DNA of 32,000 nucleotides. It comes from Vulcanisaeta distributa DSM 14429 (lineage in GTDB: Archaea; Thermoproteota; Thermoprotei; Thermoproteales; Thermocladiaceae). The notes beneath the pieces were generated by a model. The model was not told where the DNA came from, searched no databases, and saw only the letters and a program-made list of their open reading frames with translations. The stretch's first letter is position 1. Every line of letters starts with the position of its first letter. Shown here piece by piece: positions 3,301-22,743 of the stretch. The DNA is taken from NCBI RefSeq assembly GCF_000148385.1, contig NC_014537.1:2130001-2162000 (forward strand). Reading direction: 5' to 3'. The position numbers and the translations under genes are program-made.

Positions 3301-3745
3301 TGCTTTGGCTGAGGAGCCTGAGAAGAAGGTGATAATGTTCACATGCGCCTATTGTTCGTATTGGGCTGCTGATAATGCCGGTATATTTAAGATGCAGTAT
3401 CCGCCCTATGCGAGGATCATTAGGCTTCAGTGCAGTTCTAGGTTGGCTTGGAAGCATGTTAAGCGTGCTTTTGAGCTTGGTGCTGCCGGTGTGTTTGTGA
3501 CTGGTTGTAGGCTTGGTGACTGCCACTACATAACCGCAAACTACAACACAGTAAGAAGATTCGAAAACTGGAAAAAGAGACTAAAAAACATAGGCGTTAG
3601 GGATGAGAGGTTCCAGTTAAGGCTGTTTGGTGCGCCTGATGTTGTCGACCTTGTTGAGGCTATGAAGGAGGCTGAGAGGGTTGTTAAGTCGGTGACCAAG
3701 GAGGAGATTGAAATGACAAAACAAAGAATCAAGCAATTAAGGTGA
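353..3745 (+). CDS. HdrA-like flavoprotein, tandem HdrA-HdrA-ferredoxin-MvhD fusion (1130 aa)
   Basis: Module 1 (aa 1-430): GGGIAGIEAA..EKSPAIGGKMAMLDKTFPTLDCSIC, CTKCGQCEDVCP, VSCVGSRNNRYNDYCSGFCC, GIFVAGSASGP. Module 2 (aa 445-905): VGVFVCHCGTNIAG, VVVASCSPVTH..GLNPYLVEMTNIRN..WVH, VIGCGPAGLAAA, NCVGSRTSGRGCSRYCC, GIFIAGAARGP. Then two 4Fe-4S motifs (CTKCGLCIKACP, CQGCGACVAECP) and an MvhD-type domain (FTCAYCSYWAADNAG..LQCSSRL..GVFVTGCRLGDCHY). Start is TTG 353 or, more likely, ATG 356. Confidence 0.85.
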   Translation: MMPTNRILILGGGIAGIEAALALANMGYRVTLVEKSPAIGGKMAMLDKTFPTLDCSICIEGPLISDVARHPYIELLAPAELLDLTGSPGDFKARILVKPRYVTDDCTKCGQCEDVCPVIVPSEFEAGIGARKAIYLPFPQAEPGIYMLDIDHCLNKPPNYFPCDRCAKACDRNAIIYTMMPKVIERDVAAVIVSTGFDLEKGDILGEYGYGRYMDVVTSLEFERLVNASGPSSGVVIKPSTGEEPENILLVSCVGSRNNRYNDYCSGFCCTYLLKQGIYAKVLHGIKNVTIMYMNDVRTYGKGFESFFDRALKEGINIVWGRPEVLGERNGKIVVRFEDTRNKKVVVNEYDMVVLAPSVKPVGDMNKLSKILNISLNRVGFVKTDPANPTLTTRPGIFVAGSASGPRDISESVVTGLAAAVQAIRYASPGVIEEEKYEETIEPYPIRVGVFVCHCGTNIAGVADVPALVEAAKQMPDVVHAEDLQFACAKSSLDRITQVIKEKKLNRVVVASCSPVTHLRFFQDSARRAGLNPYLVEMTNIRNLDTWVHNDRKVATEKAKDMIKMAVAKVHHMVPLQTIKLPVIKRALVIGCGPAGLAAATGLAGAGIETILVEKSNECGGMLRRLNRLEPEGIEARKLLDRMVEEAKEVGVKFMLGTTIKDVSGFTGNFHVILSNGVELDVGAIIVATGAKPYVPTEFNYGKDPRVLTTLDLENGKTVEGKNVAIINCVGSRTSGRGCSRYCCAVGLSKAIELKSQGKNVVLIYRDIMGVNPEVEDLYKKARDAGVLFIRIPRKAELTEAIRMDTNKLIVHDVELGDDVEVPFDNIILNIGLVPSEDTDETSKILRLSKDQEGFLMEAHPKLGPVDTMTPGIFIAGAARGPKNVAEAIAEGYAAASRALMMLAQGYVTKEPFIPKFDWSKCTKCGLCIKACPYGAIRGVPGKWIEHIPAACQGCGACVAECPQDAITLDAMSDDVILAQVEAALAEEPEKKVIMFTCAYCSYWAADNAGIFKMQYPPYARIIRLQCSSRLAWKHVKRAFELGAAGVFVTGCRLGDCHYITANYNTVRRFENWKKRLKNIGVRDERFQLRLFGAPDVVDLVEAMKEAERVVKSVTKEEIEMTKQRIKQLR

Positions 3746-3746
3746 T
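3741..3746 (+). promoter_or_regulatory. Shine-Dalgarno-like GGTGAT box for the HdrD-like cistron
   Basis: GGTGAT lies 5 nt upstream of ATG 3752 and overlaps the HdrA-like stop TGA 3743-3745. Confidence 0.5.
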
Positions 3747-3751
3747 GGGGG

Positions 3752-4876
3752 ATGCCGGTAACCGTTAATTTCGAACTCAGGGAGGAACTACTTAAGTTAG
3801 TACCCACCCTAAGCCTCTGCTACCAATGCGGTACATGTAGCACGTACTGCCCAATAACTGATGAGTCCTATAATATAAGGCTCATCGTTAAGAAGGCTCA
3901 GCTTGGCGTTGTTGATCCAAAGGACTTTAAGGTCATTTGGGACTGCGTTACCTGTGGCACCTGCCAGGCCCTGTGTCCCAATAATGTCGAGATCGTTAAT
4001 CTCGTGGAGGTTATTAGGACCATGGCCATGAAATCCAAGGTCTTCCCAACAAAGATTAATGAAATACTCTGGAAGATATACGAGAACCAGAACCCATGGG
4101 GTTACACCGTCACCGACAAGAGGAGGTTCCTATCCCAATTCAGTGGTTTAATTAATAATGAGAATCCAGACGTTGTAATATACCCATGCTGCCTATCGGT
4201 CGGTGACCCAAGGCTTCAGAGACATATCAAGGCTTTGATCAGGGTATTGACTAAGGCAGGCCTTAAGGTGGGTATGTACACTGGTCTATCCTGCTGTGGC
4301 GACATAATACTTCACACCGGCAATAAGGCATTTTATGAGGAATACACCACTAAGCTCAGGGATTCAATAATGAATAATGTTAAGGCTCCAATAATAGTTA
4401 CACTATCACCACACTGTGAATACGCACTTAAGAAGTATCTTAAGGGTGTTAAGGTAGTTCACTACGTTGAGTTACTCGATGAGCTTATACGTAGTGGTAA
4501 ATTGAAAATTAATAAGAAGGTCGACATCACTGTGACTTACCACGACCCATGCTACTTGTCCAAGCATCAAAGGGTCATTGAGGAGCCCAGGAGGGTTATC
4601 ACATCAATACCAGGGGTTAGGCTTGTTGAGATGGTTCACTCAAGGGAGAAGTCACTGTGCTGTGGTGCTGGTGGTGGGGGTATAGCCCTTGAGACTAGGG
4701 TATCCACTGAATTATCAAAGCGTAGGTTGAAGGAGGCCGTTGACACAGGCGCCTCGGTAGTGCTCACGGCATGCACCTACTGCTTCAGGATGCTTGAGGA
4801 TGCGAATAAGGTCATGAGAACAAACTTAAAGGTTATGGATCTAGTGGAATTTCTAGATAGTGTTATGGGTGATTAG
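3752..4876 (+). CDS. HdrD-like Fe-S oxidoreductase (two 4Fe-4S ferredoxin motifs plus two CCG cysteine-rich domains)
   Basis: CYQCGTCSTYCP and CVTCGTCQALCP at the N-terminus. Two CCG-type domains follow (YPCC..LSCCGD..SPHCEY and HDPCY..SLCCGAGGG..TACTYC). I saw no hydrophobic membrane segment. Confidence 0.8.
   Translation: MPVTVNFELREELLKLVPTLSLCYQCGTCSTYCPITDESYNIRLIVKKAQLGVVDPKDFKVIWDCVTCGTCQALCPNNVEIVNLVEVIRTMAMKSKVFPTKINEILWKIYENQNPWGYTVTDKRRFLSQFSGLINNENPDVVIYPCCLSVGDPRLQRHIKALIRVLTKAGLKVGMYTGLSCCGDIILHTGNKAFYEEYTTKLRDSIMNNVKAPIIVTLSPHCEYALKKYLKGVKVVHYVELLDELIRSGKLKINKKVDITVTYHDPCYLSKHQRVIEEPRRVITSIPGVRLVEMVHSREKSLCCGAGGGGIALETRVSTELSKRRLKEAVDTGASVVLTACTYCFRMLEDANKVMRTNLKVMDLVEFLDSVMGD
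4868..4873 (+). promoter_or_regulatory. Shine-Dalgarno-like GGTGAT box for etfA
   Basis: GGTGAT lies 4 nt upstream of ATG 4878, inside the last codons of the upstream cistron. Confidence 0.5.
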
Positions 4877-7999: not shown

Positions 8000-8013
8000 A
8001 TAATACTTAATAC
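8000..8013 (+). promoter_or_regulatory. BRE/TATA-like box ATAATACTTAATAC for the HtrA-like gene
   Basis: Centred about 27 nt upstream of GTG 8035. Matches the recurrent (A/T)ACTTWWWAA box seen upstream of other first cistrons in this window. Confidence 0.45.
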
Positions 8014-8034
8014 ACCAAGCGCATTGAATTAATT

Positions 8035-8964
8035 GTGAGTAAGGACGTAGAATCAAGAATTATAGACATCGTCAATGAGATGAAATCCTCAGTCGTAAGT
8101 ATAATAACGACTAGGCTCATGGTTGATGAGTGGTTAAATGCGACGCCAGTTAGGGGTCTCGGCACGGGCTTCTTCATCGATAATAAACACGTGGTTACGG
8201 CAAACCACGTGGTGCAGGATGCGACGGAGCTCGTCGTGGTAACACCTGACGGTGATGAGTATGAAGGTGAATTACTAGGTAGAGATCCTGAATTTGACGC
8301 TGCGTTAATTAGGGTTGAGGGTGCCCGCTCAGTTAAGTCCGTCAAACTTGGCGATTCCGATAAACTTAAGGTGGGGCAGATGGTAATAGCGATAGGATAT
8401 CCGCTGGGCCTTCTCGGTGAGCCAACAGTAACTTTAGGCGTTATTTCGGCAATTGGTAGGAGCATAAGGACACCCATGGGCGTTCTTGAGGGCTTGATAC
8501 AGACAGACGCAGCTATTAATCCAGGTAACTCAGGAGGTCCCTTGCTTAATCTCGATGGTGAGGTTGTTGGCATGAACACCGCAATAATAGCTGGTGCCCA
8601 GGGGATTGGGTTTGCCGTTCCGATAAACCTGGTTAAGTTAACTATTGATGAAATACTAAAGTTCGGTAGGGTTGTTAGGCCTAGGTTAGGTATATACGGC
8701 GTTGACCTCAGCAAACCCATGGCCAGGTACTTTAGGTTGCCCGTGGATAGGGGTGTTCTCGTAGTTGGTGTTTTACCTGGCTCCCCAGCTGATGATGCCG
8801 GTCTTAGGCAGGGTGACGTAATCACGGCAATAGATGACGAGGAATTATCAAGTATAGTGCAACTAAAGGTTCACCTGGCCAGGAGGTTTATTGAGGGTAA
8901 TAGGGTTTTTGATTTAACGGTGGTCAGGGGTAGGACAAGGTATAGGATTAAGGTCAGTATCTAA
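8035..8964 (+). CDS. htrA: HtrA/DegP-family trypsin-like serine protease with C-terminal PDZ domain
   Basis: Catalytic triad context VVTANHVV (His), FDAALIRV (Asp), NPGNSGGPL (Ser). PDZ-like GVLVVGVLPGSPADDAGLRQGDVITAIDD. GTG start. Confidence 0.85.
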   Translation: MSKDVESRIIDIVNEMKSSVVSIITTRLMVDEWLNATPVRGLGTGFFIDNKHVVTANHVVQDATELVVVTPDGDEYEGELLGRDPEFDAALIRVEGARSVKSVKLGDSDKLKVGQMVIAIGYPLGLLGEPTVTLGVISAIGRSIRTPMGVLEGLIQTDAAINPGNSGGPLLNLDGEVVGMNTAIIAGAQGIGFAVPINLVKLTIDEILKFGRVVRPRLGIYGVDLSKPMARYFRLPVDRGVLVVGVLPGSPADDAGLRQGDVITAIDDEELSSIVQLKVHLARRFIEGNRVFDLTVVRGRTRYRIKVSI

Positions 8965-10163: not shown

Positions 10164-11504
10164 TTACTCACCAACTAACCTGCCCAACCTTCTGCGTGAC
10201 TTCTTTATCTGGTTAACCATCCTCTTCATCAGTTGGTAATAATTCAGTAGTTCCTTAACATCCTTCGGCGTTACACCAGCGCCCTTGGCTATCCTACGGA
10301 TTCTCGACGCATTAATTATGTCTGGGTTCAGTAACTCCTCCTTAGTCATTGAATCAAGTATGTGTCTCCACCTCCTGAGCATTTCCTGGGCATTACTCAT
10401 CTTCTCCTCATCAAGCATCACGGCCCTATACTGCATTGGTAACATGCTCGTTGGCAATAATTCCAAGATCTTACTGAGGGGTCCAAGCTTCATTATTGAG
10501 TCAATCTGCTTCTTAATGGTTAGTAGGTTTATCTTACCCTCCTCAATCTCCTCCATGATCTTGCTCTCCTCCTCAATGGCCCTTATCTTCTCAATCAATG
10601 CCTCAAGGTCGCCCATGCCCAGTAATCTCGATACGTACTTATTGGCATCAAAAACCTCGATCTCATCAATATCCTCACCAACACCAATGAACTTAATCCT
10701 CGCACCACTCCTTATAACCGAGGTTAATGCACCACCAGCCTTCGCAGTGCTATCCATCTTCGTTAGGAAAACACTATGTATTGGTACATACTTCATGAAG
10801 GCCTCTGTTTGGGCAGCGGCTTGCCTACCGACTGTGGCATCAATCACGAGCATTACCTCGTCAGGCTTAGCCTCATCATAAATAGCCTTAGCCTCCTTCA
10901 GTAGCTCCTCCTCATTCCTATGCCTACCCGCGGTATCAATTATTATTAAATCAACCCTGTTCCTCTGCATATACTCAAGGCCATGCCTCAATATGGCTAT
11001 GGGATCCTTAGAATTCTCCTCACCATAAAATAGGGCGTTAACCCTCTCAGCTAATTGCTTAAGCTGGTGATACGCGCCGGGCCTGTAGGTGTCGGTCTCG
11101 ATAAGCCCAACCCTCAAATTCCTCTTAATGTAGAACCTAGCCAGCTTGGCCGCTGATGTTGTTTTACCGCTACCCTCAACACCAATTAGCATTAACTTGT
11201 ACGGTCTCTTACTAACGTTAACGTTAGGCGCCTCCTCACCTCCCAACGCCTTAACTAATTCCTGATATAGGAGGTATAGTAGGAACTCCTTACTTGTTAT
11301 ACCTTGGGGAGGCTTTTCCTGTCTGAATCTCTCCTCAATTGTCTTTGTTATTGATAAGACAACATCAGCACTAACATCAGCCCTCAGCAGTATCCTCTGA
11401 ATCTCCCTTAAAACCTCCTTAAGCGTCGCCTCATCTATGTAGCTTAATCCCCTAATCCTATTAACCAGGTTCGTGAAGGCTTCGATTAATGGATTTGGCG
11501 CCAC
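10164..11504 (-). CDS. srp54: signal recognition particle protein SRP54
   Basis: N domain, then G domain (GVEGSGKTTSAAKLA, DTAGR, LTKMDSTAKAGGALS), then a Met-rich M domain. GTG start at 11504. Confidence 0.95.
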   Translation of the reverse strand: MAPNPLIEAFTNLVNRIRGLSYIDEATLKEVLREIQRILLRADVSADVVLSITKTIEERFRQEKPPQGITSKEFLLYLLYQELVKALGGEEAPNVNVSKRPYKLMLIGVEGSGKTTSAAKLARFYIKRNLRVGLIETDTYRPGAYHQLKQLAERVNALFYGEENSKDPIAILRHGLEYMQRNRVDLIIIDTAGRHRNEEELLKEAKAIYDEAKPDEVMLVIDATVGRQAAAQTEAFMKYVPIHSVFLTKMDSTAKAGGALTSVIRSGARIKFIGVGEDIDEIEVFDANKYVSRLLGMGDLEALIEKIRAIEEESKIMEEIEEGKINLLTIKKQIDSIMKLGPLSKILELLPTSMLPMQYRAVMLDEEKMSNAQEMLRRWRHILDSMTKEELLNPDIINASRIRRIAKGAGVTPKDVKELLNYYQLMKRMVNQIKKSRRRLGRLVGE

Positions 11505-11511
11505 CGCAATC

Positions 11512-11518
11512 CACCTCC
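11512..11518 (-). promoter_or_regulatory. Shine-Dalgarno GGAGGTG for srp54
   Basis: Minus-strand GGAGGTG lies 7 nt upstream of GTG 11504, in the 34-nt spacer after the KaiC-like gene. This suggests co-transcription. Confidence 0.5.
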
Positions 11519-11538
11519 CTAATTAATCCCTTAAATAA

Positions 11539-12585
11539 TTATTGCGGATATTGCTGTGTTTCGTAGTACTGAGACGTGTAATACTGCTGCGGGTAGTAAT
11601 AATAACCCTGCGGGTATTGCTGCCCACAATAGTAACTCCTATAATAATTGAGGGTGTTCTCATCATTTAATGGACCTATTACATAGATACCACCTGGCCC
11701 TATCTCGTATATGAGCTTTATCGGCCTAATGGGCATCCACCTCATTTTCCTAATGAACATTATCCTAGCCAAACACCCAAAGTTACTATTAGCCATTGAT
11801 ATCTCCCTAAGGGATAGCATAATCACGCCACTAGCTAGGTACTCCTCGACGCCAAACCTACTAAGCTTATTCTCTTCACCCGTGGGTATTTCCGAGGTCA
11901 TTATCGTGGTTACATCCTTAAGCCGCTTAAGCTGAAACACTAACTCCCTTAGGTACTCCCTAATCCAGATAACGTCTTGGTGGCTCATTATTATTAATGG
12001 TGCGATTGGGTCGATAACGAGCCTCTTAACATCATACTTCTTAACCTGCTCGATAATCATCTTAGCAAGATCCCTCGGGTCAAGGGTTATCTTCTCATCA
12101 CGTGCATAGATCCTGAAGTAGGTCCTAAAATCGGCCATTATTAGCTTACCGCTTCTCTCGTAAGAATCAAGATCCCAACCTAGGGCATCACGGACACCCC
12201 TCTTGACATCCTCGGACGGTTCATCAACGGTCACGTACATACCCACCTCACCAAGCTCAGCACCCGTCCTTAGGAATGTCAAGCTAAATATCGTCTTTCC
12301 AGTACCAGCCTCACCGGCTATTAGGTAAACCTCGCCCCTCTTAAATCCGCCACTAAGTATGTAAGCGTCTAAGTAGTTAATACCGGTCAATGCCTTATCC
12401 TCATAATAGTAATAGTAATATGGGTATTGATCCTGCGGATACTGAATGGTCTGTGTATTATATGAATATTGGTAATAGGTCATTGTATCATTATAATAAT
12501 TACCTGTTTGATAATTTCCATAGTAATTATAGTAATTCGAATAAGTATCCGAATCTGAAGTTGCTTGTCTCTTCATTGAATTCAT
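11539..12585 (-). CDS. KaiC/RecA-superfamily ATPase with Tyr/Gln/Asn-rich low-complexity N- and C-terminal tails
   Basis: Core: TGINYLDAYILSGGFKRGEVYLIAGEAGTGKT (Walker A) and KRLVIDPI (Walker B). aa 14-61 contain 20 Tyr in about 50 residues, including YYYYYY. The last 37 aa contain 14 Tyr and 9 Gln. Confidence 0.8.
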   Translation of the reverse strand: MNSMKRQATSDSDTYSNYYNYYGNYQTGNYYNDTMTYYQYSYNTQTIQYPQDQYPYYYYYYEDKALTGINYLDAYILSGGFKRGEVYLIAGEAGTGKTIFSLTFLRTGAELGEVGMYVTVDEPSEDVKRGVRDALGWDLDSYERSGKLIMADFRTYFRIYARDEKITLDPRDLAKMIIEQVKKYDVKRLVIDPIAPLIIMSHQDVIWIREYLRELVFQLKRLKDVTTIMTSEIPTGEENKLSRFGVEEYLASGVIMLSLREISMANSNFGCLARIMFIRKMRWMPIRPIKLIYEIGPGGIYVIGPLNDENTLNYYRSYYCGQQYPQGYYYYPQQYYTSQYYETQQYPQ

Positions 12586-12632
12586 ATTATCCCGACAATA
12601 GCTATAAAAGTACTTATATATGTTGCGTTTCG

Positions 12633-14222
12633 TTAATGTTCCTTCGGCCTTACCTTAAGTTGAACATTAAACTTCTTCCTGATGTTCTCAAGCTTAGGTA
12701 AACCCTTAGAAATAACGGCGCCTATGTACGCATCAGGTACCTGAATAATCACTGAGCCATCCTCACCCCTAACAATTGATATCTCCTCAGGGGGTACGTA
12801 CTTCCTCAAAACCCTCACAATCCTACTAATCAACCTCTTATCACTAACGGCCTGACTAACCTTACGTGCCTTACCTATAGGCGTTACAAAGATCTCCTCA
12901 CCAAATACGTAGATCTCATACTCAACAGTGTCATTTATGAAGTCCTTAACAACAACGACCGGCCTAGCCAAGTCCTCCTCGCTCATGCCCTCGGGAACCT
13001 TAACGGTGAGCTCGAGACTATACACCTTCTGAACCTCTCCATCCTTCATGAAGAGGACCGTGTCTATTATTGACGGAAGCATACCAAGCTCCGTCCTACC
13101 TATGAACCTCTGGATCGCGTCTATGGGACTCGTTGCATGCACGACACCAACCATGCCAACACCAGCCAGTCTAAGGTCTATGTATAACTGGAAGTCCGCG
13201 GTATCCCTCATCTCATCAAATATTGTGAAGTCAGGCCTAGATAGTAACAGTAAATCATGTATTTCCTCAGACGATGCGTAGGTCTTCGATATCTGCGTTA
13301 TCTCATTGGGTAGTATCATATCCCTTGGTGACTCCACGGTCTTAACGACCTTACCGAGGCTCATGTAGTACTCAGCCAATGCTTGGGCAAAGGTCGTTTT
13401 ACCAGCACCTGGTGGACCTGCTATTAATATTCCCTCAGCCTGTCTACCCAGTCTATCGAGAACCTTAGGATGGAGTGAGTACTCCTCAAGTCTCCTCTTA
13501 ATTAATGGCTTGACGGCGGTTATCTCAATCCCGTCAGACACGGGGGGTAATGCAACGACTATTCTATACTCACCATGCTGAATAATGAGTGAGTTCTCCC
13601 TCCTAATTTCAACCCTGGTATTACTATTGGCCATTAGTGACGCTGATATCAATTCCCTAACCATCCTCTCTAGGTACTCCCTACTAAGTGGTTCATTACT
13701 AAGCGGCACCAATTGCCAATTACCCGGCCTACCCTTCTTGGCATAGGGTATTGAGCCCTCCTTAAGGTGAACTGACATCGTGTCATTATCGAAGAACCTC
13801 TCAATCTCCAGCTTATCCTTATGCTGACCTATGAACAACGTCTCAATGCCCATGGCTCTTGAAATCTCAAAATTCATCTCATCGCTTGTCACCAGCGTTG
13901 CGCCCAACTCCCTCGCCAGCTCCCTGACTATCTCATCAACCGAGTGCTGGTCAGGCCTTGGTATTGACTTTGGGAGCACCGACACGTACTCGACCCTTAT
14001 ATCCTCAAGGCCAAGCTTATTTATTGAGTCCATGATATAATTCAACTCCCTAATACCCAGCCAACCCAATGCACCACCAGCCCTAGCCTCACTCTCGAAC
14101 TTCCTAATTATCTCTGTATGTATCAATAACCTACCCCTAATGTTACCCCTCAATATTGCCTCTTTCAAACTCCCATCCAAGAACACCGATGTATCGGGTA
14201 TGTAAATATTGCTTACTTGCAT
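12633..14222 (-). CDS. PIN domain + PilT/VirB11-like ATPase + KH domain protein (archaeal COG1855-type ATPase)
   Basis: N-terminal PIN (IYIPDTSVF .. LVTSDEM), Walker A GPPGAGKTT, FDEMRD Walker B region, C-terminal KH-like VIIQVPDAYIGAVISKGLPKLENIRKKF. Confidence 0.8.
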   Translation of the reverse strand: MQVSNIYIPDTSVFLDGSLKEAILRGNIRGRLLIHTEIIRKFESEARAGGALGWLGIRELNYIMDSINKLGLEDIRVEYVSVLPKSIPRPDQHSVDEIVRELARELGATLVTSDEMNFEISRAMGIETLFIGQHKDKLEIERFFDNDTMSVHLKEGSIPYAKKGRPGNWQLVPLSNEPLSREYLERMVRELISASLMANSNTRVEIRRENSLIIQHGEYRIVVALPPVSDGIEITAVKPLIKRRLEEYSLHPKVLDRLGRQAEGILIAGPPGAGKTTFAQALAEYYMSLGKVVKTVESPRDMILPNEITQISKTYASSEEIHDLLLLSRPDFTIFDEMRDTADFQLYIDLRLAGVGMVGVVHATSPIDAIQRFIGRTELGMLPSIIDTVLFMKDGEVQKVYSLELTVKVPEGMSEEDLARPVVVVKDFINDTVEYEIYVFGEEIFVTPIGKARKVSQAVSDKRLISRIVRVLRKYVPPEEISIVRGEDGSVIIQVPDAYIGAVISKGLPKLENIRKKFNVQLKVRPKEH

Positions 14223-15305: not shown

Positions 15306-15677
15306 TTAAATTCTTCCGTTAAATAACCTTGAACCACCTGGCTTACTAAGTTCAACGATCAAATTCGTTATGGTCCTACGTGCATCGTTAAGCCCGTAAA
15401 TCACTGAGCCATAGCTGGGCACCAGTATAAACGCTCCAGTAATGAATAATCCACCAGCGATTAAGTAGTTGCGAAGTACTACTATGGCCAGTCCTAGGTA
15501 TACTAATACGTAATCATTATTTATCACAGATGAATACCTAAGGATATCACTGTAGTATCCAAGCCTATAGAGTGCGGTCATTATCATGAATTGGCCAATG
15601 AAATTCTCAATAGCCACAACCACACTCACTAAATTAATGATTAATGGGCCAACCCGGATCACGACCATCACATCCAC
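15306..15677 (-). CDS. small hydrophobic membrane protein (about 3 predicted TM segments), function unknown
   Basis: 123-aa ORF, strongly hydrophobic, same strand and tightly spaced between the MFS gene and mvk. No recognisable motif. Confidence 0.45.
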   Translation of the reverse strand: MDVMVVIRVGPLIINLVSVVVAIENFIGQFMIMTALYRLGYYSDILRYSSVINNDYVLVYLGLAIVVLRNYLIAGGLFITGAFILVPSYGSVIYGLNDARRTITNLIVELSKPGGSRLFNGRI

Positions 15678-15706: not shown

Positions 15707-16015
15707 CTATGAATACGCCGACCTACCAACATCGTAATCCTCAGGGTATGCCTTAACCATCAGGTCGAAACCCCTCCTCACCAGGGTTGTGTATATGATT
15801 AGTAGTAGAATTGAGGCTAGGGCATTGGTTATGTCCATGGATATTGGCGGTAAATGAATTAGTATTCCCATGAGTGCGATTACGGAGAATGCATAGAATA
15901 TGAATACCACTAGGTATAGTATGAAGCCCGCCATGATCACATTAACACCCTTAATGAGCGGGCTCAATTTATCAACGGTGTCATCGCTCATTACCAATAT
16001 TATGGCGAATCGCAC
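15707..16015 (-). CDS. small hydrophobic membrane protein, function unknown
   Basis: 102-aa ORF with two long hydrophobic stretches. Its 5' end overlaps the MFS gene 3' end by 35 nt, and a later start (Met9) still overlaps. Confidence 0.4.
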   Translation of the reverse strand: MRFAIILVMSDDTVDKLSPLIKGVNVIMAGFILYLVVFIFYAFSVIALMGILIHLPPISMDITNALASILLLIIYTTLVRRGFDLMVKAYPEDYDVGRSAYS

Positions 16016-19377: not shown

Positions 19378-22300
19378 ATGAATGTGAGTAGCTGGGGCGC
19401 AATCGCTCCATCGATGATTAGGAGATACGTGATTATAACGTTAATTGCCCTAATCCTCGCATCAATTGGTGCTAAGGCGTTGACACCCGCTGTTAATAGT
19501 ACGCACTTTATAATCTATGACTTAGCAAACGCGGGTTTATCATATGATCAAGCCCTAGACAACTACCTGGAACAGGCATACTCACTATACACAAGCACTT
19601 TAGGTATGAAAATGGCGCCACCATGTAATGGAAGTCAATACACGGTATACGTAGTGTCCTCTCTTCCAGGGTCAGAAGCAGGTATAACAGAGTGGGAATA
19701 CACATATAATCCAAGCACCAATCAAATACTCAGTACCTGCATAGAGTACATAAACATAAGCGCCGGCTTATCAAGCCAGTGGCTCGAGCACACGGCCTAT
19801 CACGAACTTGTCCACGTATCGCAATGGGCATACGTACAATACACGACAATACCCCAGAATTACCCATGGTATATCGAAGCTGATGCAGAGGGCACTGCGA
19901 GTTATTACACAAATCAATGCCCAATGGACCAGGACTACTTCCAGTATAGCCAGTATGAGTATGATCCATATGATTACGCAGGAAAACCAATAATAAATAT
20001 GTACTATTACTCAGCCTTCATATACTGGCTAATTGCAAACGGCATTGGACCGGCAACCATCGAGCAGAACGTATTCACTAGTAATAGTGTCATTAATTCA
20101 TGGCTTGACAATTACTACACCCAGTATCTGGTTTCACTGGTCCATGGACAGAGCCTGTGCGGGTCAACTTACTACCCAAGCTTTCAAACAATAGATATGA
20201 GTGGCAGTACATACTCCTTCAGCGTTAGTTTACAAGGCCTCAGTGCCCAGTATTACGAGATTCAATTACCCGCCACAGGCACCATAGAAATCACGGCAAG
20301 CGGTGGCTCGGTTACTAGCAATATTGAACTCAACTCAGCATTCTCAATAACAAACACGACCCTATACATGGCCGTAGTCAACCCAACAACCAGCAGTGAA
20401 AGTGTTGCATTAACGATTAGTTATACCCCAGGTATAATGGTTAGGATAATAAACGGCACATACAACGTAATGAAAGAATCATTAACACTGGAATTGTACA
20501 TCACATACGGGACGGCGCCAATTACGGGCACCGTATACATCAACGGCACCTCAGTAAGTGCAAGCAATGGTTATGCAGGTGTTACATTTACGGGAATTAC
20601 CTGGGGCACCTACACAATAAACGCGACATACGAAAACTCAACGGCCCTCGCCCACATCACGTTAACACAGCCATCAATGTCATTAATAACGTCATCCACA
20701 CTTTATCTAACGAGCAATAGCTTCGGCTACCTAGTATTTTCGGTGAATAATCCAAATAATGTAACGCTAATCACGAACGTAATGATCACATCACCACCAA
20801 GCCCAGTAAATACGTATAAGCCAATGATTTACTTTGAGCCGCCAAATGAGACGTTAACCCTAAGCCCAGGCACATCAACGGTCAAGGTATACTTCTTCAC
20901 CAATGCCACGGTGGCGAGCGGTCAAGGGGACATTTACCTATATAATAGTCCAAGTACCGCAATAACCCTCGGGTACAACGTAATACCCGCCCAGATAGGT
21001 ATCTTAAACGCTACATACTACATAAACGGCAACTACACAGTAATTAATGCATACGTTAATAACATAGGAGTAATACAATCAACATTAAGCGGCCTTACAG
21101 GTGCCGCATATATTAATTACAGTACGTATACAATAACGACACTCGGAATAAACATAACAAGCCCAGTGATAAGGCTTTTACCGAGAATTACGGTATTAGC
21201 ACCGCGCTGGGCCCTAGTTAATGTAACGATTACCCTATCATCACCAAAAACCTGCTCAAGCTTCCCCGTGTTTTATGGCGGCAAGTTCTATGTGAACAAT
21301 ACATACGTAGGTAGTGTACTCGTACCATGCAATAGTGAGGGTATTGCGTGGAACGCCATGAATATCACTTACAGGGATTATCATGTTACGCTATCAATCA
21401 CAAACACAACGATCACTGCCACAATTAATATAATACCTCCATCAATCAACGTAGTTTATTACCTGTGGAATATAACGGGCATTAATGAGTACGTAATAGC
21501 TAACCTTAGCGTGTATGGCCCATATAAATACGTGATTCTCGGTAAGGAGGTAAGTAACTCAACGCTGCAGCTTGAGTACTCCTTACCCATAAATAATACC
21601 ATACTAACCATAAACACTGGGTTTAGTAACATAACAATCCAGAGACCGAAACCATTAATAGGCCTGGAATCACCGGCAATAACAATTTACCCGCAGGTAA
21701 TTAACGTAGTTATTAACGTCACAATGCCACCAACACTCACGTATCAGGGCATTCTGAATACGTACTTAAATGGTTCATTATACTCATCAACAATTGTTAA
21801 TTTGCCGCCAGGTAAGTCAACACTCATTAACGTATTAGTTAAGCCTATGACGCCAAGCATATACATTATTAATGTGAAATTCGGCGCGTGGTCCTCAAGC
21901 AACATTACTGTAGCTAGTGTAGAATTGAATGAATTAAACGTACAGGTAAGGCCTCTAGTGATTATTGGTCATGCTGAGACAATAAATATAACGCTAAATG
22001 ATTATCCACCAATGGGATTACCCATTAATGTGACGCTTCAGGGCTGTATTAATGAGACGATGACTGTCGTGGCAAATGCATCATTAAGCCTAGGATTCAA
22101 TAAGGAGTGTGCATTATTAATTAATGCATCAACATACACATTAGCGAGTGAGGCTATTAGTTACTGGGACTATCTAAACCTATGGATTAATAATACGGTT
22201 GGTTACTACAATGGTTATCCACTAATACTTAACGAGACAATAACAGCATACGCAACATTCCTAAACGGTTCCAGGGTGCCAGCCACGGTACTCATTAACG

Positions 22301-22743
22301 GGTCAACAACACTCACCCTGCAGTCCCTGGGACCCATCACGATCACATTAAGCATTAATTACCTCGGTGCCACAAATGAATCCACGTTAAGCGCCTACGT
22401 CATACCACCGACATACTTCGAAGCAGAGGAGATACTCGGTGAGTTAGGCAATCCACAATTTCTAAATGCCACAATTAGTAATGCAATAACAAGCGGTAAT
22501 TGGGGCTTGGTTAATGAAATAGTTAATGAATACCAAGAATCATCTAGACCATACGACCCACTGGCCCAGTTATCAAGGTACTTATTAATACAGGCAGTAA
22601 TGAGTGGCGATGTTAATAAGATAGGTCTCGTAAACATCATACTAAAGTACGAACTCCTCATTTACGCAATTTTCATACTAATAATCGCACTAATAATAGT
22701 AGCCGTTTATAGGGTGGTTAGGGCTGGCTCACGTAAGGCCTAA
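19378..22743 (+). CDS. large membrane-anchored, heavily N-glycosylatable extracellular protein with N-terminal HExxH (gluzincin-like) metallopeptidase motif
   Basis: N-terminal signal/anchor MIRRYVIITLIALILASIGAKA. HELVH at aa 142-146 (nt 19801-19815), followed by YPWYIEADAEGTASYY. About 39 N-x-S/T sequons by hand count. C-terminal TM LLIYAIFILIIALIIVAVY followed by RVVRAGSRKA. Confidence 0.7.
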   Translation: MNVSSWGAIAPSMIRRYVIITLIALILASIGAKALTPAVNSTHFIIYDLANAGLSYDQALDNYLEQAYSLYTSTLGMKMAPPCNGSQYTVYVVSSLPGSEAGITEWEYTYNPSTNQILSTCIEYINISAGLSSQWLEHTAYHELVHVSQWAYVQYTTIPQNYPWYIEADAEGTASYYTNQCPMDQDYFQYSQYEYDPYDYAGKPIINMYYYSAFIYWLIANGIGPATIEQNVFTSNSVINSWLDNYYTQYLVSLVHGQSLCGSTYYPSFQTIDMSGSTYSFSVSLQGLSAQYYEIQLPATGTIEITASGGSVTSNIELNSAFSITNTTLYMAVVNPTTSSESVALTISYTPGIMVRIINGTYNVMKESLTLELYITYGTAPITGTVYINGTSVSASNGYAGVTFTGITWGTYTINATYENSTALAHITLTQPSMSLITSSTLYLTSNSFGYLVFSVNNPNNVTLITNVMITSPPSPVNTYKPMIYFEPPNETLTLSPGTSTVKVYFFTNATVASGQGDIYLYNSPSTAITLGYNVIPAQIGILNATYYINGNYTVINAYVNNIGVIQSTLSGLTGAAYINYSTYTITTLGINITSPVIRLLPRITVLAPRWALVNVTITLSSPKTCSSFPVFYGGKFYVNNTYVGSVLVPCNSEGIAWNAMNITYRDYHVTLSITNTTITATINIIPPSINVVYYLWNITGINEYVIANLSVYGPYKYVILGKEVSNSTLQLEYSLPINNTILTINTGFSNITIQRPKPLIGLESPAITIYPQVINVVINVTMPPTLTYQGILNTYLNGSLYSSTIVNLPPGKSTLINVLVKPMTPSIYIINVKFGAWSSSNITVASVELNELNVQVRPLVIIGHAETINITLNDYPPMGLPINVTLQGCINETMTVVANASLSLGFNKECALLINASTYTLASEAISYWDYLNLWINNTVGYYNGYPLILNETITAYATFLNGSRVPATVLINGSTTLTLQSLGPITITLSINYLGATNESTLSAYVIPPTYFEAEEILGELGNPQFLNATISNAITSGNWGLVNEIVNEYQESSRPYDPLAQLSRYLLIQAVMSGDVNKIGLVNIILKYELLIYAIFILIIALIIVAVYRVVRAGSRKA

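Follow-up and report, generated by a model that had tools for sequence, protein, structure and literature searches.

A KaiC-like ATPase of the hyperthermophilic archaeon Vulcanisaeta distributa with two tyrosine-rich disordered tails under purifying selection

A KaiC-like ATPase encoded in a 32,000-nucleotide stretch of the Vulcanisaeta distributa DSM 14429 genome (contig NC_014537.1, positions 2,130,001 to 2,162,000; hereafter, the window) carries a tyrosine-rich tail, predicted to be disordered, at each end of a single catalytic core. The codon alignments described below show that each tail is translated and that purifying selection acts on it. By the phylogeny of the core, the N-terminal tail (N-tail) is the Thermoproteaceae-specific form of an ancient N-terminal disordered linker, which tethers a four-cysteine mini-domain in other lineages. 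We tentatively propose that the tails are multivalent tyrosine stickers that would drive higher-order assembly of the ATPase ring. The coding sequence (11539..12585; stop codon at 11539-11541) starts with ATG and encodes 348 residues. Positions are those of the window, and the gene and its features lie on the minus strand unless a strand is given.

The N-terminal disordered region (residues 14-61; 12403..12546) contains 20 Tyr, 6 Gln, and 6 Asn among its 48 residues, with no Lys or Arg and only 2 acidic residues. The C-terminal one (residues 321-348; 11542..11625) has 10 Tyr and 9 Gln among 28 residues and also lacks Lys and Arg. Measured against the long open reading frames (ORFs) of the window (Tyr, 4.7%; Gln, 1.8%), the enrichment has binomial probabilities of ~1e-14 for Tyr in the N-tail and, for the C-terminal tail (C-tail) counted over residues 312-348, of 6e-10 for Tyr and 2e-8 for Gln. 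Together, the two regions have no Lys or Arg, 3 acidic residues, and 2 aliphatic residues, and most of their positions (42/48 and 24/28, respectively) are taken by residues of the set Q, N, S, G, T, and Y. No other ORF segment of comparable Tyr density was found in the window or in ~400 kb of DNA flanking 53 related loci. A search with the concatenated tails gave only three candidates, too few to show whether other proteins share such tails. Its two hits seem to be fragments of orthologues, one with the Pfam domain of KaiC and the other on the V. distributa contig that also holds locus L006. Recounting the sequence reproduced the reading frame, the tail sequences, and the Tyr and Gln counts of the initial annotation exactly, including the 14 Tyr and 9 Gln among the 37 residues 312-348. 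Its description of both tails as Tyr/Gln/Asn rich held for Tyr and Gln, but Asn enrichment is limited to the N-tail. The prion-like character that it assigned to them was borne out qualitatively, since the tails are polar and aromatic, lack basic residues, have few acidic or aliphatic ones, and are predicted to be disordered, which is also what a sticker-and-spacer sequence looks like.

This composition invites a stricter reading, in which the tails would form a self-templating amyloid and act as a heritable or switch-like element. Such a reading is consistent with their Q/N/Y-rich and charge-poor sequence, and archaeal candidate prion domains high in Tyr and Phe were shown to form amyloid and to replace the prion domain of Sup35 (bioRxiv 10.1101/2020.07.20.212902). 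However, KaiC, RecA, and Vulcanisaeta are absent from the main texts of two papers on archaeal prion candidates, one of them that same study. In addition, Gln plus Asn make up only ~25-32% of the disordered regions (Tyr, 36-42%). The default core length of PLAAC is 60 residues, and the tails, with 48 and 28 residues, are shorter. A strict prion is, on balance, very unlikely.

An AlphaFold2 model of the single chain, built on 74 homologues, gave predicted local distance difference test (pLDDT) values of 40-57 over residues 1-60 and of 47-58 over residues 321-348, and mostly above 90 in the core. The C-tail had been proposed to begin at residue 312. This was right for residues 321-348, but the first 9-12 residues fall within a C-terminal helix (residues 309-320, ENTLNYYRSYYC; 11626..11661) predicted with pLDDT values of 91-96. 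A corresponding segment is present in relatives at that position (e.g., LENFMKQID.WY and LDEYLQELSKQY), and the AlphaFold2 model of one of them, P0107, places a C-terminal helix at the same site. On these models, residues 309-320 are a structured family-wide element and not part of a disordered tail. Because this helix is both confidently predicted and conserved, we take residues 321-348 as the true C-terminal disordered region.

The gene has orthologues in other Vulcanisaeta genomes (82-97% identity), the nearest locus being that of V. distributa JCM 11217 (protein 97% identical), and codon alignments of the window gene with four intact Vulcanisaeta orthologues showed that the tails are kept. 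Synonymous sites are heavily diverged or saturated between these orthologues, and the protein sequence of the tails changes little. Where synonymous sites were not saturated, the ratio of non-synonymous to synonymous substitution rates (dN/dS) was 0.02-0.2 in the tails; the core had values of 0.01-0.05. In the N-tail the ratio ranged from 0.05 to 0.20 (0.08 against locus L001, with 12 synonymous and 6 non-synonymous differences). The C-terminal part (residues 305-348) showed 13 synonymous and 2 non-synonymous differences from L001 (dN/dS, 0.02) and 24 and 1, respectively, from L002, and the C-tail is nearly invariant among species whose cores are 85-96% identical. Tyrosine columns of the N-tail were more often invariant than spacer columns (13/20 versus 9/28; Fisher P = 0.04), which is the pattern expected if the tyrosines were the functional residues. 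No such difference was found in the C-tail, where 7/10 Tyr and 13/18 spacer columns are invariant.

These values bear on the idea that the tails arose by neutral low-complexity expansion, i.e., by slippage and compositional drift that would leave a Tyr-rich filler used for spacing only. The initial annotation had suspected hexanucleotide slippage at the YYYYYY run, and the repeat is real. The run (residues 56-61), which abuts the core, is encoded by (TATTAC)2-TATTAT at 12403-12420, and Tandem Repeats Finder reported it as an array of period 6 with 2.8 copies (12404..12420). Apart from it, the gene has a single tandem array, a 9-nucleotide unit present twice (12520-12537). The run has 5 or 6 Tyr in orthologues, and the YY-[ED] junction preceding the core is kept even in paralogues. 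The tail indels are all in frame and span 1-6 codons, several of them being single codons at Tyr/Gln runs (YYYYY/YYYYYY, YYY/YYYY/YYYYY, and QQ/QQQ). The variation in tail length put forward as a slippage signature thus exists between species, but it is small. Slippage is a minor contributor, given only two tiny arrays and small indels between species. The two small repeats, the indels, and the wide variation in tail length and composition between genera all fit a neutral origin. Nevertheless, such an origin is largely refuted by dN/dS values of 0.02-0.2 with synonymous sites near saturation, and it would be hard to reconcile with a C-tail almost invariant across species, with Tyr codons that mix TAT and TAC instead of forming pure repeats, and with Tyr enrichment as a derived trait that an entire clade shares. 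We give this explanation very little weight. Slippage as the main cause of the tails was rejected, given only two micro-arrays and dN/dS values far below 1.

Another concern is that the tails could be annotation artefacts, with translation starting at Met35 or later and the C-tail resulting from frameshift read-through. The tail dN/dS argues against frameshift artefacts and neutral slippage filler alike, and therefore excludes the scenario of a downstream start combined with a strain-specific frameshift, which the initial annotation had named as refuting its proposal. Upstream of Met35, the reading frame stays open, is conserved, and is under purifying selection (the 12 synonymous and 6 non-synonymous differences from L001 given above), and the aligned intact Vulcanisaeta orthologues also keep the frame of the C-tail. 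In addition, a TATA-like box (TATATAAG, with GAAACGCAAC before it; 12613..12620) lies 28-35 nucleotides upstream of the ATG at 12585, correctly spaced for that start. Upstream regions, aligned manually, showed an equivalent box with similar spacing before the matching start in Vulcanisaeta, Pyrobaculum, and Thermoproteus orthologues. Since this spacing fits the known geometry of archaeal promoters, we infer that the box is a promoter giving a leaderless or near-leaderless mRNA. A scan for bacterial sigma-70 promoters and terminators was uninformative, being not applicable to archaea. The protein begins with a short basic motif (MNSMKRQ; 12565..12585), which follows the family pattern M-x-x-hydrophobic-[KR]-[KR] common to distant relatives. 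Among the N-termini of the Tyr-rich clade listed, 23/25 have at least two Lys or Arg within the first 14 residues, some with RRRKR-type clusters (uncultured Thermoproteaceae), and sister lineages have a basic stretch ahead of the four-cysteine module. The conserved box and the conserved basic N-terminus both support the start at 12585.

Two database observations would favor an artefact. The orthologue of V. souniana JCM 11219 (P0002; sourced from NCBI; 312 residues) begins at the equivalent of Met35, omitting about half of the N-tail, and the draft loci L005, L006, and L015 are frameshifted in the KaiC-like gene. The P0002 entry is likely truncated by a mis-called start, since both the promoter box and the upstream reading frame are conserved. 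Split tblastn matches, implying frameshifts, were seen in the KaiC-like gene of the JCM drafts L001, L005, L006, and L015, and SRP54, the GHMP kinase gene, and other neighbors are likewise split in them. Because neighboring genes are split too, these frameshifts look like assembly or sequencing errors and not like pseudogenes. They account for two truncated database entries, P0004 and P0008. We therefore give an annotation artefact hardly any credence. Two antisense ORFs cover the tails (12390-12701, plus strand, 103 residues; 11542-11670, plus strand, 42 residues). They are probably not genes, because the selection signal sits in the minus-strand frame; reversed Tyr codons read as stop-free Ile and Val codons.

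Between the tails, the protein has the single KaiC-like core of RecA fold that the initial annotation had described (residues 67-304; 11674..12387). It was recognized by Pfam as one stretch of KaiC (PF06745; 208.7 bits against a cutoff of 26.6). The best solved relatives were PH0186 of known structure (2zts; phmmer E = 4e-36), followed by the CI domain of cyanobacterial KaiC. Foldseek returned them in the same order, with a template modeling (TM) score of 0.87 and 36% identity for 2zts. The Walker A and Walker B motifs noted earlier are present in the sequence. In Walker A (GEAGTGKT, residues 91-98; 12292..12315), G91, E92, G94, G96, K97, and T98 are invariant among the 74 homologues, as are R188, D192, and P193 of Walker B (RLVIDP, residues 188-193; 12007..12024; RLVIDPI spans residues 188-194). 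The acidic pair D121-E122 (12220..12225), which HMMER aligned to the paired catalytic glutamates of 2zts and 8zn5, is invariant in the same set, and the core is apparently catalytically competent. All NCBIfam equivalogs scored far below their cutoffs (circadian KaiC, archaeal KaiC subfamilies, ArlH/FlaH, and RadB). Among ArlH/FlaH, RadB, and the archaeal subfamilies KaiC_arch_3/4 and thermo_KaiC_1/2, none of whose cutoffs was reached, the best score was that of KaiC_arch_3 (95 bits against 249), with 21 against 215 for ArlH and 20 against 278 for RadB. The circadian profiles gave 76 against 546 (circ_KaiC) and 113 against 408 (PRK09302). By these profiles, the protein is a single-domain KaiC-like ATPase and not a clock KaiC, since its 348 residues hold only one KaiC stretch and its NCBIfam scores are far under the cutoffs. 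Orthologues named "circadian clock protein KaiC" or "recombinase RecA" in databases are overannotated. The protein is cytoplasmic. It has no hydrophobic signal-like segment and is encoded among housekeeping genes, and the surface adhesion that had been suggested as one role of the tails finds no support.

The origin of the N-tail can be traced in the wider family. An N-terminal extension of 11-152 residues is present in all of the ~120 homologues listed, and a disordered extension at this end is a feature of the whole orthologous family (Thermoproteales and Thermofilales). In Thermofilaceae, Infirmifilum, and other Thermoprotei (49-61% core identity), the proteins begin with a module of four cysteines (consensus SC-x2-C-x-YY...YC-LKL...DP-x2-PPC), in which the four Cys and one Pro do not vary across 43 sequences and for which Pfam gave no match. 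This mini-domain occupies residues ~5-40 of proteins P0053-P0120 and P0123 and is found in loci L026 (~3680-3780), L029, and L030. In the AlphaFold2 model of P0107, it is folded (pLDDT, 88-91) and followed by a low-confidence linker of ~70 residues. In these sister lineages, Pro, Gln, Ser, and Thr abound in the linkers, whose Tyr content is 0-9%. In more distant relatives from metagenome-assembled genomes (MAGs) of Brockarchaeota type, a Zn_Ribbon_1 domain (Pfam) sits directly on the core. The first 66 residues of the window protein have no Cys and 30% Tyr, and the four-cysteine module is absent from the whole Tyr-rich clade. This module defines the architecture ancestral to the KaiC-like family, in Thermofilaceae and other Thermoprotei. 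The N-tail of the window protein sits where an ancestral tether held a small module of metal-binding type.

In a neighbor-joining tree of the core, all proteins with a Tyr-rich N-tail (14-34% Tyr, no Cys module) formed one clade with a bootstrap of 100/100, comprising Vulcanisaeta, Caldivirga, Thermoproteus, Pyrobaculum, and uncultured relatives. Its sister is P0052, which retains the Cys module (bootstrap, 98/100). As the Tyr-rich proteins are monophyletic and their sister carries the module, a single loss and conversion is indicated. The lineage of the Thermoproteaceae, in the NCBI sense, lost the Cys module and turned its linker Tyr rich, from 0-9% to 14-34%. Within the clade, N-tails span from ~14-23 residues with 4-7 Tyr (Pyrobaculum and Thermoproteus) to ~100 residues with 16-21 Tyr (uncultured Thermoproteaceae). 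The Tyr/Gln-rich C-tail has a narrower distribution, being present in most Vulcanisaeta, in Caldivirga, and in a few other lineages; P0006, a protein from a MAG of the Vulcanisaeta clade, lacks it.

The orthologous group is small when counted by representatives at 50% identity. Only four scored above 225 bits, after which scores fell to 188 bits or less, corresponding to generic single- or double-domain KaiC-like proteins. A second KaiC-like paralogue (34-46% identity) was found in the same genomes, in Pyrobaculum and other Thermoproteaceae (L047, L048, L049, L050, and L051) and at positions 789-1475 of L030. Its N-terminus is minimal and ends in LYYE(T)VP, Tyr-rich tails are lacking, and several of its copies share a conserved C-terminal ...VPVTYLPTL motif.

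How might such tails work? PH0186 and KaiC are described as forming rings. By homology, the window ATPase would form a ring as well, a hexamer displaying 12 tails with ~180 tyrosines. [quoted passage not shown] Such an assembly would take over the tethering or recruiting job that the Cys module may perform elsewhere. The very high Tyr density may keep weak pi-type contacts effective at 85-90 °C, and the nucleotide or phosphorylation state of the core might gate the process. In prion-like domains, phase separation is driven mainly by aromatic residues, Tyr more than Phe, and these also set its critical temperature (PMC11820118; bioRxiv 10.1101/2021.01.01.425046). Among archaeal candidate prion domains, those with a positive test result had a higher Tyr/Phe content (bioRxiv 10.1101/2020.07.20.212902). 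The window protein agrees with this scheme in having 20 and 10 Tyr set in polar, uncharged, disordered spacers, with the stickers of the N-tail conserved more than their spacers.

Several points weigh against the sticker proposal. The tails are short (48 and 28 residues), and their tyrosines are partly clustered (YYYYYY, YYYY, and several YY doublets) and not evenly patterned. In model prion-like domains, clustering favors aggregation over liquid condensates. Because the Tyr runs are clustered, a gel or fibril would be suggested here rather than a liquid. Linkers poor in Tyr serve sister lineages that live at similar temperatures, so a high Tyr content is not a general thermal requirement. Within the clade, the short N-tails of Pyrobaculum and Thermoproteus (~14-23 residues, 4-7 Tyr) come without a Tyr-rich C-tail. 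Conservation of the C-tail, spacers included (13/18), may fit a specific interface at least as well as fuzzy stickers, and the oligomeric state of the window ATPase is assumed from homologues. A fuller scenario would have the tails turn the ring into a nucleotide- or phosphorylation-gated, Tyr-driven scaffold (condensate, gel, or fibril) at 85-90 °C, with Tyr clusters perhaps serving as phospho-acceptors like those of bacterial tyrosine kinases (BY-kinases). This combination is unlikely as a whole.

The specific interface leads to another explanation, in which the tails would be flexible linkers whose tyrosines bind one partner (a protein, 7S or another RNA, or single-stranded DNA) and replace recognition by the four-cysteine module without any self-assembly. 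The ancestral layout, i.e., a folded four-cysteine or Zn-ribbon module, a disordered linker, and the core, is what a tether would look like, and the short basic N-terminal motif has been kept. The C-tail is conserved residue by residue, as shown by its invariant spacers and by the 24 synonymous and 1 non-synonymous differences from L002. The core also matches SSO2452 (E = 4e-15), and RecA-superfamily relatives of this kind have been reported to bind nucleic acid. On the other hand, the N-tail cannot be aligned between genera and yet keeps its composition, which is more typical of a function driven by composition.

The genomic neighborhood can be read both ways with respect to such docking. Upstream of the KaiC-like gene, and co-directional with it, lies a gene for an ATPase of the PilT/T2SSE family that weakly matches KH at its C-terminus (12633..14222; Pfam). 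Downstream, 34 nucleotides past the stop codon and in the same direction, is SRP54 (10164..11504; Pfam SRP54, SRP_SPB, and SRP54_N). The order PilT-type ATPase/KaiC-like/SRP54 is conserved and co-directional in much of the Thermoproteales and in deeper Thermoprotei (L001-L031 and L053). Adjacency to the PilT-type ATPase is kept in Vulcanisaeta, uncultured Thermoproteaceae, Thermoproteus, and deeper Thermoprotei loci, and the gaps between the KaiC-like gene and SRP54, estimated from alignment ends, range from ~-10 to +40 nucleotides. This synteny with a PilT/KH-type ATPase and SRP54 across the Thermoproteales would favor such docking. However, the 34-nucleotide spacer before SRP54 (11505-11538) contains a TATA-like element (ATTTAAGG / ATTATTTAAGG) conserved in Vulcanisaeta, and SRP54 probably has its own promoter, which weakens the link between the genes. 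A Shine-Dalgarno-like GGAGGTG (11512-11518), 7 nucleotides before the GTG start of SRP54, is missing in the closest orthologue. A KaiC-SRP54 operon was thus not established, and since the spacer element suggests separate transcription, we consider the synteny with SRP54 as a lead and not as operon evidence. Taken together, docking to one partner without self-assembly is possible but doubtful.

Tyrosine clusters next to a P-loop ATPase raise one more alternative, in which a KaiC-type autokinase ring would trans-phosphorylate its own tails and so control oligomerization or output. Tyr clusters are present at both termini, the YYYYYY run lies five residues from the first core motif, and no catalytic residue is missing. 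BY-kinases, which are ring-shaped ATPases of the P-loop class, are regulated through trans-phosphorylation of a tyrosine cluster at their C-terminus (PMC2422856 and PMC11206214). KaiC-family proteins are autokinases, and autophosphorylation of ArlH regulates its oligomerization according to work cited in PMC10334743. Against this, the fold is that of RecA/KaiC and not of MinD/ParA type, the 30 tyrosines far exceed the 4-7 of a BY-kinase cluster, and the co-enrichment of Gln, Asn, and Pro would be left unexplained. Moreover, the autophosphorylation known in the KaiC family concerns Ser/Thr within the core, and there is no phosphatase or other signaling gene among the characterized neighbors. 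We consider this role improbable.

Returning to the window, the gene lies in a housekeeping region with genes for a GHMP-family kinase, the PilT/T2SSE ATPase, SRP54, a phosphodiesterase, an HtrA-like protease, and NMD3. No gene of KaiB/KaiA type and no phosphatase or other signaling gene was found by Pfam among the characterized neighbors, several further ORFs having no match. The latter include ORFs at 19378-22743 (plus strand; 1,121 residues), 15306-15677 (minus strand; 123 residues), and 15707-16015 (minus strand; 102 residues). In the 1,121-residue ORF, one stretch is moderately rich in Tyr (8 among 40 residues), far below the density of the tails. The HtrA-like protease/PDZ ORF (8035-8964, plus strand) is almost wholly overlapped by an antisense ORF of 272 residues (8007-8825, minus strand). 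The antisense ORF has no Pfam match, and its tblastn matches in orthologous loci are expected from the shadowing of a conserved gene. Scans for transfer RNAs and Rfam families over the whole 32-kb window gave nothing at threshold.

The initial annotation knew of no characterized KaiC-family member with such tails, and full-text searches likewise revealed no paper in which prion-like or tyrosine-rich tails are linked to KaiC; the principal review on KaiC-like ATPases of archaea (Makarova et al. 2017, mBio) lay outside this search. The core family was known already, and its relatives commonly carry N-terminal extensions that are disordered or of Zn-ribbon type. What is new is the extreme and selected Tyr-rich tails, the clean way in which they replaced a Cys module in evolution, and the growth temperature of the host. 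Sticker-type low-complexity domains are believed to depend on weak contacts, which heating usually dissolves. The protein makes sticker-type assembly near 90 °C, and selection for it, directly testable. It offers a natural experiment in this respect, with a small folded ATPase carrying two short tails of ~40% Tyr under strong purifying selection, and with Tyr-poor linkers and four-cysteine sister proteins as built-in evolutionary controls. If the tails do form a Tyr-driven scaffold, hyperthermophilic archaea would have their first example of a selected assembly system built on low-complexity regions of sticker type. If their tyrosines were instead phospho-acceptors, archaea would gain a tyrosine-autokinase mechanism, with a bearing on archaeal tyrosine phosphorylation. 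To our knowledge, archaea have no dedicated tyrosine kinase.

Among solved proteins, PH0186 (2zts) is the closest to the window protein. Both have a single RecA-like domain with the same fold and catalytic motifs, the match covering residues 67-302 of the window protein. PH0186, a chain of 251 residues matched over 14-244, has no long terminal extensions, whereas the window protein has additional disordered regions of 66 residues at the N-terminus and 28 at the C-terminus, with 36-42% Tyr in the tails. Cyanobacterial KaiC aligns with the window core through both CI and CII (E = 1e-23 to 1e-36) and shares the Walker motifs and the acidic pair. It differs in having two domains (CI and CII, ~500 residues) where the window protein has one, and no KaiB/KaiA-like gene accompanies the latter among its characterized neighbors. 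The orthologues with a four-cysteine module share with the window protein the core (49-61% identity), the position of the N-terminal extension, the C-terminal helix, and part of the synteny. The difference is at the N-terminus, where they and the Zn_Ribbon_1 relatives carry a CxxC...C...PPC module or a Zn-ribbon, with linkers of 0-9% Tyr, while the window protein has no Cys and 30% Tyr.

Outside the family, the tails resemble the low-complexity domains of FUS, hnRNPA1, and the Sup35 N domain in being disordered, charge poor, and polar, with aromatic stickers and a vocabulary of Tyr, Gln, Asn, Gly, Ser, and Pro. Of the common stickers, Tyr is known as the strongest. Their QYPQ and GYYYY motifs recall the PQGGYQQYN repeats of Sup35. 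Compared with these eukaryotic prion-like domains, the tails are much shorter, have part of their Tyr in runs, and sit on an ATPase of a hyperthermophile and not on an RNA-binding protein. The low-complexity domain of FUS has 27 Tyr in 214 residues, and the Tyr density of the tails is about three times higher. The likeness is an analogy of composition only, with no homology. Finally, the BY-kinases Wzc, CapB, and CpsD are, like the window protein, P-loop ATPases with a terminal tyrosine cluster, a ring and an autokinase activity being assumed here from homologues. No BY-kinase family was present among the Pfam or NCBIfam matches of the window protein. BY-kinases have a MinD/ParA-like fold with Walker A, A', and B motifs and one terminal cluster, in contrast to the RecA/KaiC fold of the window protein and its 10-20 Tyr per tail, placed at both termini among Gln, Asn, and Pro.

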